Shown piece by piece: positions 17,149 to 26,544 of a DNA stretch of 64,000 nt (positions within the stretch are counted from its first letter, which is position 1; the number at the start of each line of letters is the position of its first letter). Made by a program: the position numbers and the translations under genes. Source of the DNA: a virus (lineage: Duplodnaviria > Caudoviricetes); the IMG/VR virus record IMGVR_UViG_3300003937_000325, one strand, 5' to 3'. The notes under the pieces were generated by a model. The model was given only the letters and a program-made list of their open reading frames with translations, did no database searches and was not told where the DNA came from.

Positions 17149-18054
17149 TTACCCTATAATTTTTGTCAACCACTCTTTAAGGTCAATGTAGTTCAAAGTC
17201 CCAAATTTATCATTATATTTAGATATGTCTAACGCATATTTTCTATCATGACCTAATCTATCTTTTACGTATTCAAACTTAACATCTTTACCAACTATCT
17301 CAGATACAATTTTAATTAATTCATTATTAGTTATACGATAACCACTACCAATATTAAAAACTTGATTAACTTCATCCGATAACATTATATTAATTATTGA
17401 TTTCGCATTATCATCGGCATGTATCCATTCTCTAATTTGTTCACCATCACCGTAGACTGGAATAGACTCATCGTTTTTAATCATTTTAATTATCTTAGGT
17501 ACCATCTTTTCGGAGTGTTGATTTTCCCCAAAATTATTACAGGTTCTAGTAATCACGTAAGGTAACCCAAATGTCCTACCAGCTGACTGCACTATTAAGT
17601 CTGAGGAGGCTTTAGTTGCAGAATAGTATGATGACCCAACCAACGAAAATTCTTCATCAGCGGACACCTCTAAACCATAATCATTCATATCCCCATATAC
17701 TTCATCTGTAGAAATATGTATAAATTTCTTTAGACCTTTAACCTTTAGTGCTAATTCAACCATATTAAACGTACCCTCAACGTTAGTCCTTACAAATGGT
17801 CTACCATCTTTGATTGAGTTATCTACATGTGATTCAGCCGCAAAATGAACTACGTAATCACAGTCAGGTAATTCAGTCAAATTACATATATCTTCTTTAA
17901 TAAATTTAACCTGAGTATTGATATTGTTAGGGTTAGATGCATATGTGAGTTTATCTATAACTGTTATTTCACAATCATTTATCTCACTATTTAATTTGTT
18001 TACGAAATGTGACCCTATGAACCCCATTCCACCTGTAACTACTATTTTTATCAT
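17149..18054 (-). CDS. rfbB: dTDP-glucose 4,6-dehydratase
   Basis: VTGGMGFIGS, HFAAESHVDNSI, HISTDEVYG, YSATK, REWIHADD, DRLGHDRKYALD. Confidence 0.92.
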   Translation of the reverse strand: MIKIVVTGGMGFIGSHFVNKLNSEINDCEITVIDKLTYASNPNNINTQVKFIKEDICNLTELPDCDYVVHFAAESHVDNSIKDGRPFVRTNVEGTFNMVELALKVKGLKKFIHISTDEVYGDMNDYGLEVSADEEFSLVGSSYYSATKASSDLIVQSAGRTFGLPYVITRTCNNFGENQHSEKMVPKIIKMIKNDESIPVYGDGEQIREWIHADDNAKSIINIMLSDEVNQVFNIGSGYRITNNELIKIVSEIVGKDVKFEYVKDRLGHDRKYALDISKYNDKFGTLNYIDLKEWLTKIIG

Positions 18055-20426
18055 TGTTCTACTTTTGAAACGTTATTATCTTTATTTATTTTTACCACAC
18101 TATCGGCCCATTGACTAACTAAAGGATTATGAGTTATCACAAATATTTTCTCGAAATACTCTTTAATCTTTTGGAAGAATTGAGACACCATTTCTAAATT
18201 CTCATTAGATATTTTACCAAATACCTCATCAAACACAACTATGTTTGGTTTCGGTAAAGAACATACCTTACTTAAAACCGCCCTTAACGCCAATGAAGCT
18301 ATAGACCTTTCATATCCTGAACCTGAACTCATTAATTTTTCAATACCAGTATTATTATCTATCATCCAAAATTCAACCTCATCTTTTTCAGATATCCTAA
18401 CCTCCAATTTAAACTCTGCAGAATCAATCAATAACCTTTGTAATTCTGAATTAATTACCGGTGTCATACTTCTCATAATCATTTTGGTTATACCTTTTTT
18501 ACCAAATAATTCTAAGTAAATTTTATATAACCTTAATTTCTTTTCTTCATCTTTTATTCTAATAATAAAACTATTATTCTCATCAATCTTAGAATTACGG
18601 TTTTTAATATTATTTTTTGAATCACTTATTTTAGTATTAACACCGTCTCTTTCAACTGTTAAAACATCCAACCTCATATCTGCTTTGAGAATGGTCTCAT
18701 CAATTTTTTTATTTTCCTCTAATTTTATTTGAACCTCTTTGAATCTTTTAAGTTTATCTTCCAAACTACCTTTTTTAAGTTCCAAAGTTTCAAGTTGAAT
18801 TTCAAATTTTTCCTTTATAAGTTTGTTTCTTTCATAGGTATCAAAATCTTTTTTAAGATTTACGAAAGATTGTTCTTGAAGTGACAACTCCTTTAATTTA
18901 AGAGTAGAACGACTTATACCTATATTAATATCCTCTAATTCTTTTTTTCTCTTTTCTGTGTAAGTTGACTGAGCCAAAACGATACCACAGTATTGACACT
19001 CTAATCCATCTTCAAACGTTTTTAATTCTTCAATGATATCTTCTTTTTTCGAAGACATTGTACCCTCATTAACCTTTTCAGTTGATAACTTTTCTTTTAT
19101 TTGGTCGTGTTCATCTTCATGGTAATATTTTGAAGGTTCAACTACATTGATTGAAGTAAGTTCTTTAAGTGCTACACCTATTTTTGACCCATATTCTTTA
19201 ATCTCATCTTTCATTGATTCAGGGTTAATTCTAAGTAACTCATCATCTAACCCTATGTGTTTTTTTCTAATCAAATCGTCTCTATAACCCTGACCTTTCT
19301 CAATACGACTATTAACATCACTAAGTTCATCAACATATTTCAGTATGTTTAAATTCTCTTGTTCAATATCGATTTTCGCAATTTCATTCTCTTCCTTTAA
19401 TGATTCAATATTATATATATTTGAAATCATTCCCTTACTATAGTTTGAAGTAATTTCTTTAGCTACGTCTTCTTTTAACTTAAGAGAATCTAACCCTAAA
19501 AATCTTGATAAAACTTGTCCTCTAGCGGTGGGTTTAGAATCAATTAATTCCTCTAAATTAGTCGAAGTAGTTAGTATAGTCATTAAGAAATCATCCATAG
19601 TTCCTATAGATTTCTTTATAAACTCTTCGGTTTCCCTTCTTTGTTCACCTGTAAAATTTTGTAAACTACCGTCAGACAATTTTTTGAAAAATTCTAAACT
19701 AGTACTAACAGTGTAATCTGTTTTATTTCTTTTTAGTTTACGATTGACTTCCCTAACTATGATGTAATCCTCACCATCAATTTGAATTTCACCTTTAACT
19801 ACTACTTTATCTTTATTTCTAAATCGATTAAAAATTTCTTCAGCTTTATTAGTCTTAGTTGTCGTGTTAAAGAATAAAAATAGTAAAAGGTCCACAGTCA
19901 AAACCGTTTTACCACCAAAGTTAGGTGGATTAGATTCTACCGCAGTAATACCTTCTACTTTTTCAAAATCTAAAACTTGTTTGTCACCAAATGATAGAAA
20001 GTTAGAGAATTCAATATTTTTTATGTACCACTTTTTAAATGGTGTTATATCCGCCTTTTCGGAAGCAATTTTATCCTCCACTAATAAATCAATGTTTAAT
20101 ACTTCATCTAAACTTTTTTCATACCCATTAGCAATTAGATATTTTTTTATTAACTCTTTTTGAAAATTTTCATCTAATATATTCATAGAAACGTCTACGG
20201 ATTGCACATCCATATCTTCCGTCTTAACTTTCGTTATTACGTTTACATTCTTAGATTTATATTTTTTTTCAAAATAAGACCTAACTCTCTTTAGTCTTTC
20301 CTGAGTAAAATTATCTGGAGTATCTTCCCAAACAACTTGAATATAAGGATTTTCTAAAGTATCAACATCTAGTTTATGACTCATATAACTGTAATTTAAT
20401 TCTTTTGGCGGATTAAACAAATCCAT
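18051..20426 (-). CDS. Rad50/SbcC/gp46-like SMC ATPase with ~128-aa N-terminal extension
   Basis: NFLSFG, NFGGKT (Walker A variant), coiled coil with CQYC zinc hook, SSGSGYE signature, VVFDEVFG Walker B, VITHN. Confidence 0.9.
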   Translation of the reverse strand: MDLFNPPKELNYSYMSHKLDVDTLENPYIQVVWEDTPDNFTQERLKRVRSYFEKKYKSKNVNVITKVKTEDMDVQSVDVSMNILDENFQKELIKKYLIANGYEKSLDEVLNIDLLVEDKIASEKADITPFKKWYIKNIEFSNFLSFGDKQVLDFEKVEGITAVESNPPNFGGKTVLTVDLLLFLFFNTTTKTNKAEEIFNRFRNKDKVVVKGEIQIDGEDYIIVREVNRKLKRNKTDYTVSTSLEFFKKLSDGSLQNFTGEQRRETEEFIKKSIGTMDDFLMTILTTSTNLEELIDSKPTARGQVLSRFLGLDSLKLKEDVAKEITSNYSKGMISNIYNIESLKEENEIAKIDIEQENLNILKYVDELSDVNSRIEKGQGYRDDLIRKKHIGLDDELLRINPESMKDEIKEYGSKIGVALKELTSINVVEPSKYYHEDEHDQIKEKLSTEKVNEGTMSSKKEDIIEELKTFEDGLECQYCGIVLAQSTYTEKRKKELEDINIGISRSTLKLKELSLQEQSFVNLKKDFDTYERNKLIKEKFEIQLETLELKKGSLEDKLKRFKEVQIKLEENKKIDETILKADMRLDVLTVERDGVNTKISDSKNNIKNRNSKIDENNSFIIRIKDEEKKLRLYKIYLELFGKKGITKMIMRSMTPVINSELQRLLIDSAEFKLEVRISEKDEVEFWMIDNNTGIEKLMSSGSGYERSIASLALRAVLSKVCSLPKPNIVVFDEVFGKISNENLEMVSQFFQKIKEYFEKIFVITHNPLVSQWADSVVKINKDNNVSKVEQ

Positions 20427-20433
20427 TTTAACT

Positions 20434-20646
20434 CTATAACTTTATGTTAAGTGGTTGTTCATTCTCAACAACCTCATTATTTTCAGTTTCCGCTGATAAT
20501 GTTTTTCTATACTCCTCTAACTGTTTAGTCATCTCAGCAGTATACTGTTCTTGCATTTTTCTTTGCATCCCCTTAATTTTAGCGTTTCTCGCTTGAACTC
20601 TTTTACGGTGAGCCGTAGCTCCACCTCTTGTTTTACTTTTTGGCAT
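20434..20646 (-). CDS. small basic/coiled-coil hypothetical protein
   Basis: 70-aa ORF MPKSKTRGGATAHRKRV... Confidence 0.65.
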   Translation of the reverse strand: MPKSKTRGGATAHRKRVQARNAKIKGMQRKMQEQYTAEMTKQLEEYRKTLSAETENNEVVENEQPLNIKL

Positions 20647-20674: not shown

Positions 20675-20881
20675 ATGAGAGAACTAATAACAAAAATACT
20701 TTCCAATAAACTGGTAAAACTTTTATTTTCAGTCTCAATTATTGTTTCAACTATACCATCAATTATACAAGATTTTAATGGAGTAGTCAACAATGGTTAT
20801 ACACATTATGGATTAATGTTTGTAGGTATTATGTACGGAATGGAAAGTTTATTATGGATTATGGACATATGGAAAAAATAG
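20675..20881 (+). CDS. small two-TM membrane protein
   Basis: hydrophobic LLFSVSIIVSTIPSII and YGLMFVGIMYGMESLLWIM segments. Confidence 0.65.
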   Translation: MRELITKILSNKLVKLLFSVSIIVSTIPSIIQDFNGVVNNGYTHYGLMFVGIMYGMESLLWIMDIWKK

Positions 20882-21279
20882 AATCATTTAACAAAAAAGT
20901 TATTGAATTAGAAAAAGGGTTAGAAAGTAACCACCCTAACTTTGATGAGATGGACCTTTATCAACTTAAAAAAGAAATGTTACTTTATAAATTAGATAAC
21001 CCTAATGATACTAAGATTGACACCCTATTATCCCTAATGGATAATCTTGATACCGCTTTCGATAAAGACCAAACTGAAAAAATGAACCGTAAGTTAAACT
21101 TACTTACGATATGGTCTACTATTTTCTTACCGTTATCTTTCTACACCGGTATGTGGGGAATGAATTTTGATGATGTACCTTTACTAACTGGTGACCACGG
21201 ATTTTGGGTATTTTTAGGTTTAACAATATTAACTATTGTTGGGATGTTCTATTATTTTAAGAAAAATAAGTGGTTTTAA
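20869..21279 (+). CDS. truncated (mini) CorA-family Mg2+ channel: stalk + two TM helices
   Basis: MNRKLNLLTIWSTIFLPLSFYTGMWGMNFDDVP: CorA TM1 with GMN signature, then TM2 and basic KKNKW tail; only ~136-141 aa. Confidence 0.85.
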   Translation: MEKIESFNKKVIELEKGLESNHPNFDEMDLYQLKKEMLLYKLDNPNDTKIDTLLSLMDNLDTAFDKDQTEKMNRKLNLLTIWSTIFLPLSFYTGMWGMNFDDVPLLTGDHGFWVFLGLTILTIVGMFYYFKKNKWF

Positions 21280-21497
21280 TTGAAATAGTAATTAATCATA
21301 TTATCTACATTTCCATTAGAAAATCCACCCATTAAGAGTACGTATACTAAGTACATCCAACCAAATAAATAATGAATAACTAACCAAAGTAATGATTTAT
21401 TAAAGTACCAACTTACTAATAAAGCGATGACTTTATAAACCATTCTCCAATCACCAGGTACTAAATAATACCTAACTTCTTTTATTTCATTATCCAT
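21276..21497 (-). CDS. small membrane protein
   Basis: hydrophobic Y/W-rich helices; start set at MDNEIKE. Confidence 0.6.
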   Translation of the reverse strand: MDNEIKEVRYYLVPGDWRMVYKVIALLVSWYFNKSLLWLVIHYLFGWMYLVYVLLMGGFSNGNVDNMINYYFN

Positions 21498-21831
21498 TAC
21501 CTTTTGTTTCCTCGAACCATTCCACAATCGTGTTAATCATCCAAACACCACCTGAAGCTAACATACCATCAAAAAATACCCCAAACGCCATATTAACTCC
21601 TAAAACCTCAACAAATGGTGACCAAATAAAACTCATTAAAAACCCAACCCATGTTGAGGTACACATCATACAAGATATTAATCCTGATAGAAATACTCCC
21701 ATGAAGTTAAATATTGATAGTCTATTTTCCGCCCATCTATGTAAACCGTCTCTTAATCCTTTAAAAATTGAACCATACACTAATATCTGACTCATTCCGT
21801 ACGCTGCTATTAACCAAATTACTAATTCCAT
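21490..21831 (-). CDS. membrane protein, DUF1360-like
   Basis: LISCMMCTSTWVG CxxC motif within three TM helices. Confidence 0.65.
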   Translation of the reverse strand: MELVIWLIAAYGMSQILVYGSIFKGLRDGLHRWAENRLSIFNFMGVFLSGLISCMMCTSTWVGFLMSFIWSPFVEVLGVNMAFGVFFDGMLASGGVWMINTIVEWFEETKGNG

Positions 21832-22664
21832 TACTTATATATATTATCGTTTAAATTTGTAGAACCCATAAATTTACCCTTTATTGGTCCTTTTATTTTT
21901 TCTAATTCTACAACATTATTCTCAATTTGTAAAATCTTTTCATCTTTTTTTCTTATCTCATCTTTCATCTTTGATATGGTTTCCTGTAGTAATAACAATT
22001 TATCTTTATTAACTACTTTAACCTCTTTGATGACTTCAATAGGTTTTTCAACTATTACCTCTTTAATAACTTCAATAACCTTCTCAACTTCTGTAGGTGG
22101 TTTGTTTAATTCAATATCTAAAGTTTGTCTAAGTTCATCTAAACTTTCATCTTTCTTAGAAATCTCTTGAGATAACTCTTTATTCACCCCCTCCAACTTA
22201 GTAATTTTACTACCAAGTTCTTTAACTTGTTCATCATCGGTAATGTATACCTCTTTTTCAACTATTACTTCTTTAGGTTTTTCAACTTCTACAATTTTCT
22301 CAACCTCAACAATTACTTCCTTTTCTACCTCTTTAATAACTTCAAAAGGTACTTCTTTTATAACTTCTACAGTTATTTGTTTTTCAACTATTTTTTCTAC
22401 AGGTATTTCTTTAATTACTACTTTTTCAATAATTTTTTCAACCTCGATAGGTACTTCCTTTATAACCTCTTTTTCAATTATTTTCTCTTCAAATACAATT
22501 TGTTCACCATCATCAGTTGTTAGTAAACCATATTTTTCAATCTGATATCCTTTACTAAAACATATCTTAATAAACTTCTCAAAATCTAATTCGTTTAGTT
22601 TACAGAAACTTTTAATATCCTTTATCTCTTTTGTGGTAAGACTAATAATTGGTGAGTTGCTCAT
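21831..22664 (-). CDS. low-complexity V/I-E-K repeat protein (articulin/alveolin-like repeats)
   Basis: many copies of EVIKEVP / VEKIVEK / EVIVEK interleaved with coiled-coil segments. Confidence 0.7.
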   Translation of the reverse strand: MSNSPIISLTTKEIKDIKSFCKLNELDFEKFIKICFSKGYQIEKYGLLTTDDGEQIVFEEKIIEKEVIKEVPIEVEKIIEKVVIKEIPVEKIVEKQITVEVIKEVPFEVIKEVEKEVIVEVEKIVEVEKPKEVIVEKEVYITDDEQVKELGSKITKLEGVNKELSQEISKKDESLDELRQTLDIELNKPPTEVEKVIEVIKEVIVEKPIEVIKEVKVVNKDKLLLLQETISKMKDEIRKKDEKILQIENNVVELEKIKGPIKGKFMGSTNLNDNIYK

Positions 22665-23424
22665 GTCCTTTCTCTAAATCTTCAATATTTGTTATTTTAA
22701 AAGATAAAAATGGTCGAGGATTAGTTAAATCAACAAACTCATAAGTATCTTCATCTACACTATAAATACCAAACCCATGTTTAGTTATACTCTCTCCAAA
22801 GTTCTGTTGAATAGTCGAACCGACCATATATGCTTTTTTATTATTAGGTATATCAATTACTTGTCTTTTATGAATATCTCCACATAATAACACATCTAAA
22901 CCTTTAAATTTTTTTATATCGTAAGCATGGTCCCCAAAACCGTAACCAGTATCAGTAACTAATCCCTGTATTGGGTCATGAAACAATCCCACTTTATATC
23001 CTTTAGCATTCGATATTTCAGGTGGTATATTACCTTGAAATTGAGAATATACACACCAACTTATATTATCGTCCTCATAAATCCCTCGGTCTCTATAGTA
23101 CACAATTTCAGGGTTTTTAAGTGAATCTATAATAGGTGTTAATGCGTCTAATCTATTAAGATTATTATTTAAAAAGTCATGATTACCAGGAATAAGTACT
23201 GTTTTAGATATTTTACTACATTCTGTAAGTATCCAAGCTACAACTTCAATAAGTTCAGGTGTCATTTGATTTTTACTATGAACCAAATCACCCGTAAAAA
23301 CAATTCGGTCAGGCTTTATATCTTTAAATTTATTTAACATATCAGTTATAATACGCTTATATAAATCGTGGTCTTTAAATAACCTCAAATGTAGGTCTGA
23401 AAAATGTACTATATTTTTTATCAT
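22642..23424 (-). CDS. Mre11/SbcD/gp47-like metallophosphoesterase nuclease (catalytic domain only)
   Basis: HFSDLH, FTGDLVH, PGNHD, LFHDP, CGDIHKRQ, GSTIQQNFGE; start at ATGA overlap with cysK stop. Confidence 0.9.
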   Translation of the reverse strand: MIKNIVHFSDLHLRLFKDHDLYKRIITDMLNKFKDIKPDRIVFTGDLVHSKNQMTPELIEVVAWILTECSKISKTVLIPGNHDFLNNNLNRLDALTPIIDSLKNPEIVYYRDRGIYEDDNISWCVYSQFQGNIPPEISNAKGYKVGLFHDPIQGLVTDTGYGFGDHAYDIKKFKGLDVLLCGDIHKRQVIDIPNNKKAYMVGSTIQQNFGESITKHGFGIYSVDEDTYEFVDLTNPRPFLSFKITNIEDLEKGHEQLTNY

Positions 23425-24296
23425 AAACAACTAAAATATCTATCTCCCCTATCACAAAGGAAGGTTATTACAGGACCATCAGGATTATATTTTTCAACAT
23501 ATCTTTCTGCGGCTAATATATTGGAACCCGCTGAAATACCTACAAACATACCGTGTTCTTTAGCTAACTTACGTGCCCTTAATTTTGCGTCCTCAGTACT
23601 AATAGTAATGATTTTATCAACAACAGTCAAATCAACTAAAAATTTTGAACCATCTCCTATCCCTTGTATACCGTGTAAACCTGGTTCACCACCACTCATC
23701 ACAGGAGACTCTTCAGGTTCCACAGCAACTATATCCATATTAAGATAATACATTTTTAACATTGGACCGACACCCATTAGTGTACCACCTGTACCTGTAC
23801 CACTGATTATTGCACTAGGTTCTATACAAATATTTCTACACTGATGTAATATTTCAACCGCAGTTCCCTCTTTATGTGATTCAACATTTAAAGGGTTATT
23901 AAATTGGTCACAATTAAACCAACCATTCACTTCACACATTTCATCTCTAAGTGCAATAGCGTCATCAAACGCACCAGCATCCACCTCAATAAGTTCTGCA
24001 CCATAAAGTTTTAGGGTTTTCTTACGTTCCATTGACATGTTGTTAGGCATAATGATAACACACTTATACCCTCGTTCCGCAGCTAACCAAGCAAAGCTAA
24101 CACCCATATTTCCAGAAGTGGCTTCACATATAGTCCCACCAGGTAATAGGGTTCCATTTTTTTCTGCTGTATTAATAATGTGTGATGCAGGTCTATCTTT
24201 GATAGAACCCGTTGGATTTAATAACTCAACCTTAGCATATATTTTATCACTAATCTTAAGTAATGGCGTAACACCTACATTGTCTGATAATTTCAT
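23421..24296 (-). CDS. cysK: cysteine synthase (O-acetylserine sulfhydrylase), PLP-dependent
   Basis: KVELLNPTGSIKDR (PLP Lys), EATSGNMG, GTGTGGT, HGIQGIG, GISAGSN. Confidence 0.9.
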   Translation of the reverse strand: MKLSDNVGVTPLLKISDKIYAKVELLNPTGSIKDRPASHIINTAEKNGTLLPGGTICEATSGNMGVSFAWLAAERGYKCVIIMPNNMSMERKKTLKLYGAELIEVDAGAFDDAIALRDEMCEVNGWFNCDQFNNPLNVESHKEGTAVEILHQCRNICIEPSAIISGTGTGGTLMGVGPMLKMYYLNMDIVAVEPEESPVMSGGEPGLHGIQGIGDGSKFLVDLTVVDKIITISTEDAKLRARKLAKEHGMFVGISAGSNILAAERYVEKYNPDGPVITFLCDRGDRYFSCL

Positions 24297-25153: not shown

Positions 25154-25789
25154 TTATCTTTTTACTGAACAAAATGAAACGATAATATACCTTTGTCCTG
25201 TTTCCACAGGTAATCCCCCATGCCAATGAGTTATTTGACCAGGATGAATTGATATGTCACCTTTCTTTCCTTTTAATTTAGAATTTTGATTTGGGAAGTA
25301 CGTTCCCCCACCTTCAAAATCTTCGTTTAATGTCACTACGGTTGTTATCTGACTCGCATCATGATGTAGTGATAAATGATACTGAGCATATGGGTGATAT
25401 CTTGCTATGAAATTTTCACTACTCATATTTAACCATGAATTACCCTCTAATTTAAATAACTTATAACTTAATGGCCATATATATTTTTTTAATACCTTTT
25501 GATATGTATCACCTAAACCAATAGTACCTAAAACCATATCGGTTGTTGGATAACTTTCGTGTCTATCAACAGTCCAGCAATTACAAGCCTCAGCCTCTTC
25601 CATAATAAAATCACAAAACTCATCCGTAAATGCAGGAATAGTATATATATTTAATAATTCTTCATGAACATATAACTCCCAATTATCAGACATTAGTTCT
25701 GGTTTTAAGAATCTACGTTCCCACTCCGCTGGATTATCATCATATGTATACAACTCAGGATGAATATAATTACTATGTTTAACTTCCAT
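25154..25789 (-). CDS. 2OG-Fe(II) oxygenase resembling the lysyl hydroxylase (PLOD) catalytic domain
   Basis: FTDEFCD, YPTTD, FIARY, LSLHHDAS (HxD), FEGGGTYF, HPGQITHWHGGLP (distal His), GQRYIIVSF. Confidence 0.85.
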   Translation of the reverse strand: MEVKHSNYIHPELYTYDDNPAEWERRFLKPELMSDNWELYVHEELLNIYTIPAFTDEFCDFIMEEAEACNCWTVDRHESYPTTDMVLGTIGLGDTYQKVLKKYIWPLSYKLFKLEGNSWLNMSSENFIARYHPYAQYHLSLHHDASQITTVVTLNEDFEGGGTYFPNQNSKLKGKKGDISIHPGQITHWHGGLPVETGQRYIIVSFCSVKR

Positions 25790-25940
25790 TATTTTCTTTT
25801 TTATCTCTTTTATAATTTAGATATATCATACCAAAACATAACCCAAACATAAATGATGGGAGTTGCCCACCCGTTTCTCTACCAATTAGAAAAAATATGA
25901 TTCCAAGAACCATTAAAAAATTATTAGATATTCTAATCAC
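25779..25940 (-). CDS. 53-aa two-TM peptide between the oxygenases (not in ORF track)
   Basis: GTG start; MIRISNNFLMVLGIIFFLIGRETGGQLPSFMFGLCFGMIYLNYKRDKKENNGS*; overlaps both neighbours. Confidence 0.55.
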   Translation of the reverse strand: MIRISNNFLMVLGIIFFLIGRETGGQLPSFMFGLCFGMIYLNYKRDKKENNGS

Positions 25941-26544
25941 TTGTACAATATGTCATTAAAAAATACCTATCATTTTTATCAACTCTTTTCATACCGTATC
26001 TATGCGTTATTTGTCCAGGATACATATAAATATAACCCTGTTTTGGTACTATAGTTTTTCCATATTTCTCAAAAACTAAATCACCACCTTTACTTTCATC
26101 ATCTAATTTACAGTACATTGAAATGTGTACATCATCATGGTGCATTCTAATTTCCTGACCCTCTTGTAACTTCAAGACATTATTATCGGGTTGTAATAGT
26201 TTCCATTTTTTACCCTCTAAATGCCACTCTTTTTGTACTATACTAAAAATGTAATCGTGAACTAAATGAGTCATTATTTTTTCTAAATTAAACTTTTTAA
26301 GGTTTGTTGAAAAAACAGGCGTACCCCATCGATTTACTTGGTCCCAATTAATCGTTTTTAAAATATCCACTAAATTATCACAGAATTTCGTATTAAAAAA
26401 TGGAAACTCAAACACATCAGGAGCGACTTCCTGAACCATCATATTCCACTCATATGATAAAAATTCTTTTCTTATGTTTCTACTTTTCCATAAGTCAAAG
26501 TCACTGTCATCGAACATGTCAGGATATAGGTCTTTATATACCAT
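25933..26544 (-). CDS. second, divergent PLOD-like 2OG-Fe(II) oxygenase
   Basis: EVAPDVFEFPFFNTKFCD, RMHHDD, KGGDLVF, YPGQITHRYG, RYFLMTY. Confidence 0.78.
   Translation of the reverse strand: MVYKDLYPDMFDDSDFDLWKSRNIRKEFLSYEWNMMVQEVAPDVFEFPFFNTKFCDNLVDILKTINWDQVNRWGTPVFSTNLKKFNLEKIMTHLVHDYIFSIVQKEWHLEGKKWKLLQPDNNVLKLQEGQEIRMHHDDVHISMYCKLDDESKGGDLVFEKYGKTIVPKQGYIYMYPGQITHRYGMKRVDKNDRYFLMTYCTSD

Follow-up and report, generated by a model that had tools for sequence, protein, structure and literature searches.

Gating of CorA is still debated, and, to our knowledge, all members of the family that have been studied carry a large cytoplasmic sensor. Canonical CorA, a Mg2+/Co2+ channel represented by the T. 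maritima protein (TmCorA; PDB 4i0u/3jcf) and by the families PF01544 and TIGR00383, shares the succession of TM1, GMN loop, TM2, and basic tail with the phage protein described here, which we refer to as "mini-CorA." Canonical CorA, however, has the domain formed by TmCorA residues 1 to 176 and an MPEL motif, whereas mini-CorA lacks that domain and carries VPLL instead, is paired with a small protein (p68), and is found in viruses only. Like mini-CorA, the full-length CorAs of the Lactobacillus phages Lb338-1 and LfeInf (322 to 329 aa; PMC6163359) are encoded by CorA-family genes of tailed phages, as are those that we found in the Microcystis phage MaAM05 (374 aa) and in metagenomic phages (301 and 332 aa). 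Yet, these are host-like transporters that match only the last 60 to 90 residues of mini-CorA, at 25 to 39% identity, and no p68-type partner has been reported for them.

Viral miniature K+ channels manipulate the membrane and the ion state of the host. The chlorovirus channel Kcv and its like (viral K+ channels are listed in PMC6163359) are the nearest parallel in concept and follow the same idea as mini-CorA, in that the pore module is kept and the regulatory cytoplasmic domains are dropped, but this is an analogy and not a homology: The channel superfamily, the ion, and the host are different, and Kcv is a tetramer, whereas mini-CorA is presumably a pentamer. A further comparison is with the CorA-type effectors of type III CRISPR systems, which are activated by SAM-AMP and are common in Bacteroidota. 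The B. fragilis CorA (PMC10600005) has a CorA-like two-helix C-terminal membrane module, as does mini-CorA, but it also has a large unrelated N-terminal ligand-binding domain and cas neighbors, both of which mini-CorA lacks, and PADLOC CorA models match the TM part of mini-CorA only. The partner p68, in turn, is reminiscent of class II holins or pinholins such as S68 of phage 21, given its length of about 68 aa, its two TM helices with small and polar residues, and its charged C terminus, which we take to be the features of that class. It differs from pinholins in that it has no sequence-family match, has no lysis-gene neighbors, and is followed by mini-CorA rather than by an endolysin. A full-text literature search yielded no publication on a truncated viral CorA or on a p68 partner; full-length phage CorA and CRISPR CorA are known, and we found no account of a minimal CorA with a p68 partner.

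The locus lies within a stretch of 64,000 nucleotides (hereafter, the window), which has a G+C content of 33% and belongs to an uncultured marine jumbo phage of the T4 type. The record nearest to the window measures 119 kb, at an estimated completeness of 41%, and relatives are as long as 297 kb. In this lineage, the p68/mini-CorA cassette is inverted between the SbcC and SbcD genes, in a block of replication and nucleotide-metabolism genes that also includes primase and deaminase genes. The features are collected in Table 1.

Table 1. Features of the cassette and its flanks, in window coordinates.
Feature	Position	Strand	Details
SbcC/gp46-like ATPase, left flank	18051-20426	-	phrog_77, E 1.1e-45
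Two TATTTAT boxes, candidate late-type phage promoter	20656-20662, 20664-20670	+	12 and 4 nt before the p68 start
p68, two-helix membrane hairpin (68 aa)	20675-20881	+	AF2 pLDDT 84; helices 12-35 and 46-65
Overlap of p68 3' end and mini-CorA 5' end	20854-20881	+	Candidate starts ATG 20854 (Met1) and ATG 20869 (Met6)
Mini-CorA open reading frame	20854-21279	+	141 aa (136 aa from Met6); Pfam PF01544 match
TM1, pore-lining helix (residues 80-100)	21091-21153	+	Low column entropy; TmCorA alignment
GMN signature (residues 102-104), followed by loop FDDVPLL	21157-21165	+	Invariant in 49 sequences
TM2 (residues 114-135) and basic tail KKNKWF (136-141)	21193-21276	+	AF2 helix 114-137
TTAA common to the stops of mini-CorA (+) and the convergent 73/83-aa membrane-protein gene (-)	21276-21279		
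SbcD/gp47-like nuclease, right flank	22642-23430	-	phrog_100, E 3.3e-21

Mini-CorA matched the Pfam CorA family (PF01544) with an E value of 3e-22 and a score of 79.7 bits, against a curated cut-off of 27 bits. The match is confined to the final 86 positions (207 to 292) of a profile of 292, with no counterpart of positions 1 to 206 in the protein. The NCBIfam model for corA (TIGR00383) scored 71.5 bits, which is under its equivalog cut-off of 200.75, and mini-CorA is therefore not to be named a CorA equivalog; some members of its family are annotated by JGI simply as "magnesium transporter." With phmmer, mini-CorA aligned to TmCorA residues 265 to 351 without gaps, such that WGMNFDDVPLL fell onto YGMNFEYMPEL and the C-terminal tail came to lie opposite KKKKWL. 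In this gap-free alignment, L81, L84, S88, L92, S95, and G99 correspond to TmCorA M291, L294, A298, M302, T305, and G309, i.e., every pore-lining position of TmCorA has a like residue in mini-CorA. Given such a match across pore residues, GMN signature, and tail, the identity of mini-CorA is real and far beyond chance. An earlier note on this DNA, made from its letters, had described a CorA of ~140 aa with an intact GMN signature, two TM helices, and a basic tail, and this description held in the Pfam match, in the TmCorA alignment, and in the AF2 model. Within the periplasmic motif of TmCorA, the change from MPEL to VPLL removes the Glu, and hence the selectivity or the conductance of mini-CorA may differ. 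We also found a 295-aa CorA whose residues 169 to 295 are collinear with mini-CorA residues 9 to 141, from which it follows that mini-CorA originated by N-terminal truncation.

The AF2 model of mini-CorA (a single chain, based on an alignment of 49 family members, with a moderate pLDDT of 69 and values below 50 in the GMN loop) consists of helices at residues 4 to 24, 32 to 48, 53 to 99 (stalk and TM1), and 114 to 137 (TM2). A Foldseek search with this model returned CorA chains for all top matches, with a probability of 1.0 and a TMq of 0.56 to 0.67 to TmCorA. By VIA, model residues 1 to 139 are equivalent to TmCorA 177 to 349 (139 residues, Z = 8.9); although this Z is modest for a helical protein, the assignment to the CorA fold is safe because of the sequence match. 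Nothing in mini-CorA aligned to TmCorA 1 to 176 in the VIA comparison, whereas its first 78 residues aligned to the soluble domain of ZntB, within the helical portion, and the model has just 79 residues upstream of TM1, all of them helical. As modeled, mini-CorA is a CorA without the N-terminal alpha/beta domain, in which the helices are shortened and the helical funnel wall, the stalk, and the pore are retained. The description as pore and stalk only thus needs correcting: The N-terminal alpha/beta domain is indeed missing, but about 80 cytoplasmic residues are kept, corresponding to the helical alpha5-alpha7 part of the funnel.

The missing domain of ~175 residues is the source of the cytoplasmic Mg2+ sensor in cellular CorA. 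We take the D89 side of the TmCorA sensor to sit in this alpha/beta domain, and the mini-CorA stalk is about 17 residues shorter, which suggests that the D253 region is missing as well; judged by alignment and model, neither D89 nor the sensor residues of the D253 region would have a counterpart in mini-CorA. Mini-CorA is a CorA-family pore module with the CorA fold that has lost the sensor domain. The loss does not by itself imply an "open" pore, since the hydrophobic gate residues are kept.

The conservation of the protein is concentrated in the membrane part. Among 49 members, the column entropy was 0.14 bits in TM1 and 0.26 bits in the GMN loop, vs. 1.1 to 1.5 bits in the cytoplasmic helices; G102, M103, N104, F105, and P109 were invariant and W140 nearly so. 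The C-terminal end is similarly constrained, with Y134 and F135 invariant and K136, K139, and W140 nearly invariant in a 33-row alignment. In these alignments, the pattern is that of a conducting pore. Selection on the gene was strongly purifying, with dN/dS values of 0.032 and 0.070 relative to the two closest relatives, 0.016 for the pair L004-L005 (L numbers denote individual loci), and 0.16 to 0.32 for distant pairs, and the dN/dS was below that of the neighboring SbcC.

These values bear directly on the reading of mini-CorA as a decaying, functionless remnant of a captured full-length corA. Such an origin would account for the collinearity with the C-terminal 127 residues of the 295-aa CorA, but dN/dS values of 0.03 to 0.07, a length that remains constant at 125 to 141 aa in dozens of diverged loci, and a frame without interrupting stop codons all speak against decay, and no N-terminal remainder of CorA is present upstream, as p68 fills that space. 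We therefore consider a remnant most improbable. The earlier note had named full-length CorA in relatives together with relaxed selection as the signs of a decaying fragment, and neither was found. Instead, the short form is conserved in related phages: Five related phage records, including a 99%-complete 297-kb genome, each contain a single CorA match, whose open frame measures 133 to 166 aa, and none of the five has a full-length CorA.

On a larger scale, approximately 977 short homologues were retrieved from marine metagenomes (77 to 247 aa, mostly 125 to 141 aa); among the matches listed, from JGI, ENA, Logan, and Tara data, homologues of 105 to 141 aa were 64 to 99% identical. Twelve IMG/VR loci bear mini-CorA, on contigs of up to 297 kb. 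In an exhaustive search of 1.84 billion representatives without a length limit, mini-CorA clusters reached E values of 1e-28, while full-length CorAs started at 1e-16 and aligned only from about residue 51 of mini-CorA. Fused or full-length forms of mini-CorA were sought in the same 1.84 billion representatives, and none was closer than E = 1e-16. The phage collection, in which records close to the window may be absent, contained no cultured relative of mini-CorA, only full-length CorAs that match its C-terminal part, and no close relative of the flanking DNA of the window or of its SbcC. Two homologues (P0041 and P0045) lie on a 430-kb contig, which is larger than the ~300-kb genomes of the phage group.

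Mini-CorA was found to be restricted to viruses. A scan of one genome per species across 185,579 species gave a single full-coverage match and, apart from this one phage-like contig in a single-cell assembly (SAG), no cellular genome with the mini-CorA architecture. The match (L016) comes from a Prochlorococcus single-cell assembly, in which a p66 and a 133-aa mini-CorA share a contig of 15 kb. This contig carries orphan, phage-like genes and is related to a 152-kb IMG/VR contig; it could stem from a co-sorted virion. L016 showed no DNA match to known cyanophages, and the capsid of L011, a locus related to L016, is just 33 to 34% identical to cyanophage gp23. The Prochlorococcus host link, which comes from one single-cell assembly, is only a lead. 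None of the 14 other genomes of this Prochlorococcus genus (completeness not stated) had a Pfam CorA match above the cut-off, and the genus thus seems to be without CorA-type Mg2+ channels altogether.

The latter observation is relevant to a reading in which mini-CorA acts as a poison or modifier, by joining the full-length CorA of the host in mixed pentamers and thereby blocking or deregulating Mg2+ transport. Mini-CorA would be equipped for this, as it retains the whole TM and stalk region, i.e., most of the membrane-embedded contacts between CorA subunits, and a control search confirmed that CorA is present in Bacteroides and in most bacteria. However, if the link to Prochlorococcus is real, mini-CorA cannot act there via a host CorA, because the 14 congeners have none. 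Furthermore, phages that are just 47 to 53% identical overall and that differ in genomic background have the same TM1 and GMN loop, which points to an intrinsic constraint rather than to co-variation with the CorAs of different hosts. An intact selectivity filter would be dispensable in a blocker, and poisoning leaves p68 unexplained. Hence, we consider this reading unlikely. Where the earlier note had offered a pore or a poison subunit, the data lean to an autonomous pore, given the near-invariant pore and GMN signature and a Prochlorococcus without CorA, with less support for the poison.

A related proposal, also raised previously, is that mini-CorA serves as an anti-defense decoy which enters the pentamer of a type III CRISPR CorA effector and disables it. 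CorA effectors do occur in Bacteroidota, their TM domain is required for immunity (PMC10600005), and the PADLOC CorA models match mini-CorA weakly and over part of its length (E = 6.9e-8). These defense-type models, however, scored 29.8 and 17.3 bits, compared to 79.7 and 71.5 bits for the canonical ones, which weakly disfavors the proposal. Moreover, the GMN signature is perfectly conserved in mini-CorA, whereas CRISPR-associated CorA is described as divergent, and the cassette was likewise present in T4-like phages outside this lineage, including one with a link to Prochlorococcus. Taken together, we regard a decoy as very unlikely.

The partner protein p68 accompanies mini-CorA in nearly every phage that has mini-CorA. 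Starting from mini-CorA, 11 of 12 loci have p68 directly upstream; the remaining one, L010, contains mini-CorA without p68 within the 21% of the genome that is covered. Starting from p68, a mini-CorA of 125 to 141 aa with the GMN signature was present downstream in each of 36 viral loci, adjoining or overlapping p68 in 35 of them, so that p68 and mini-CorA form a fixed module. Within the window, p68 and mini-CorA are on the plus strand, amid genes of the minus strand (48 of the 51 tabulated genes, including every neighbor of the cassette). The strand bias, the constant pairing, and an overlap of the two genes agree with the earlier description of a plus-strand two-gene unit comprising a small membrane protein. 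On L119, a 152-kb viral contig, a 328-aa gene (1697-2683) lies between p68 and mini-CorA, with stops and starts overlapping on both sides. An identical p68 sequence (P0271) was present on 272 contigs, the longest of which measures 1.37 Mb, vs. the ~300-kb genomes of the phage group.

The p68 protein is itself conserved, with dN/dS values of 0.10 to 0.26 and with K15, F18, P28-S29, D33, H44-Y45-G46, Y54, E57, L60-W61, and D64 invariant. No p68 family was found in Pfam, PHROG, NCBIfam, or PADLOC, where Pfam DUF7027 remained sub-threshold (E = 0.004), and the look-alikes in the ESM Atlas were viral only, none of them named. The two reading frames overlap by 28 nt when mini-CorA starts at Met1 and by 13 nt when it starts at Met6, the start used by some relatives to give 136 aa. 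Met1 is absent in L007 and Met6 in L011; both ATGs lie within an xxA-TGG (Leu/Ile-Trp) codon pair of p68. All loci with p68 retain an overlap of 13 to 41 nt, since the mini-CorA start falls within conserved Leu/Ile-Trp codons of p68. The persistence of this overlap suggests a joint function, and translational coupling of the two genes is probable from the sequence arrangement.

Mini-CorA is read in the -1 frame of p68, and the junction in the window reads TGG AAA AAA TAG. The run of six A residues before the p68 stop is not conserved (GGAAGAAATAA in L004/L005, GGAAAAATTA in L008/L009), and there is consequently no conserved slippery site at this position. A p68-mini-CorA fusion produced by -1 frameshifting was ruled out on these grounds, the more so because the only database "fusion" (P0300, 191 aa) is an indel artifact within helix 2 of p68. 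A search for longer forms with the p68 profile returned only three single-contig oddities. In P0299 (188 aa, a single ENA contig), a p68-like two-helix N terminus runs into a SET domain (PF00856), which may represent either a genuine fusion or an artifact of assembly.

Upstream of p68, the two TATTTAT boxes are a candidate promoter of the p68/mini-CorA unit. The doubled motif noted before is present, but it is not overrepresented across the entire window (44 sites vs. 53.6 expected), and close relatives keep only the proximal copy: It was found in L003, L012, and L007, no copy was found in L004/L005, and the doubled form is specific to the genome of the window. The motif is nonetheless associated with genes, as TATTTAT occurred in 7 of 51 gene-upstream stretches of 45 nt, where its frequency on the strand as a whole would predict about 1. 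The other six gene-proximal sites read TATTTATA, 5 to 19 nt before the ATG, and both p68 boxes lack the trailing A that these six share. Late expression of the cassette is plausible.

A box like those that precede structural genes is one of the features that would fit a membrane permeabilizer, in which a holin-like p68 and mini-CorA together set the membrane potential for lysis timing or superinfection exclusion rather than for nutrition. In its size, its topology, and the polar faces of its helices, p68 corresponds to a small holin (68 aa, two TM helices, N-in/C-in, charged C terminus), and two more small membrane proteins are encoded next to the cassette. Against such a role, neither an endolysin nor a spanin is present in the neighborhood, which is made up of replication and nucleotide-metabolism genes, no PHROG holin family was matched by p68, and the near-invariant GMN filter favors ion-selective conduction over a nonspecific hole; in addition, the divergence of the p68 boxes at the trailing A sets them apart from the other sites. 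We accordingly judge a holin-like permeabilizer to be improbable, about as much so as the poisoning of host CorA.

The reading that we favor, with a probability of roughly 0.55, is that mini-CorA is a self-assembling pentameric GMN pore without the canonical Mg2+ feedback sensor, which, with p68 as accessory, overrides the ion or membrane state of the host. Five copies of mini-CorA would form a divalent-cation (Mg2+-type) pore in the inner membrane of the host; for comparison, a pentamer has been modeled from the C-terminal 172 aa of a CorA-type protein taken in isolation (PMC10600005). As the canonical sensor is absent, this pore would escape the usual Mg2+ feedback and would not be shut by it. 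The p68 protein would be an accessory subunit that restrains, targets, or tunes the pore, and it may well regulate it. A promoter of its own would drive the cassette on the strand opposite to the surrounding replication and recombination genes, and through the cassette, the phage would override the divalent-cation homeostasis of its host. The benefit could be that more Mg2+ becomes available, in Mg-rich seawater, for the massive synthesis and packaging of DNA or, alternatively, that the membrane potential is altered. Seawater contains ~50 mM Mg2+, and an unregulated Mg2+ pore might be toxic there. A more specific version, which we put forward tentatively and hold to be possible but doubtful, is that mini-CorA and p68 constitute a two-component minimal Mg2+ channel that originated in marine T4-type phages, a counterpart for Mg2+ of Kcv, in which p68 replaces the sensor. 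With it, the phage would set the divalent-cation regime of the cell and would provide CorA-type transport also to hosts that lack CorA, e.g., Prochlorococcus.

Mini-CorA represents a natural CorA of 136 to 141 residues, which selection has maintained across hundreds of environmental sequences. If functional, it would provide the smallest working model of CorA and a direct test of what a pore and stalk do without the sensor. If the favored reading is true, p68 would be a new kind of accessory subunit for CorA, and divalent-cation control would join the host functions that abundant marine jumbo phages seize, in parallel to what viral miniature K+ channels did for K+.

The genomic position of the cassette varies between phages. 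The order SbcC-cassette-SbcD is conserved in L002-L007 and L012, but the cassette follows the gp23 capsid gene in L011 and lies among unrelated genes in L008 and L009, and in L010, mini-CorA stands alone beside an SHMT gene, in a context unrelated to that of the window. The cassette thus sits in different places across T4-type lineages, which argues that it moves as a module. In the window, two genes that encode small membrane proteins (73/83 aa and 113 aa; 21276-21831, minus strand) are convergent to mini-CorA. They are conserved in L003, L004, and L012, and the 113-aa protein has a weak DUF1360/phrog_781 match. The stop codons of mini-CorA and of the 73/83-aa gene share TTAA, so that no room is left for a terminator between them, and, together with p68 and mini-CorA, the two convergent genes make four consecutive small membrane proteins between SbcC and SbcD. 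Beyond them lies a 277-aa protein (21831-22664, minus strand; 262 to 385 aa in relatives) with Glu/Lys/Val-rich, EKxVIKEVP-like repeats, for which no Pfam or PHROG match was found.

On the other side, a very basic 70-aa protein with a Lys/Arg-rich N terminus (20434-20646, minus strand) is divergent from p68 across a 28-nt gap; it is conserved, though just 37 to 86% identical in relatives. Beside SbcD, the window contains a PLP-dependent gene (PALP, cysteine-synthase-like; 23421-24296, minus strand), of which a 69% identical copy occurs in L010 (6825-7703), 0.4 kb downstream of mini-CorA and adjoining the phage SHMT gene. Two adjacent genes for OGFOD2-like/2OG-Fe(II) oxygenases (211 and 203 aa; 25154-26544, minus strand) were also observed in the replication block.
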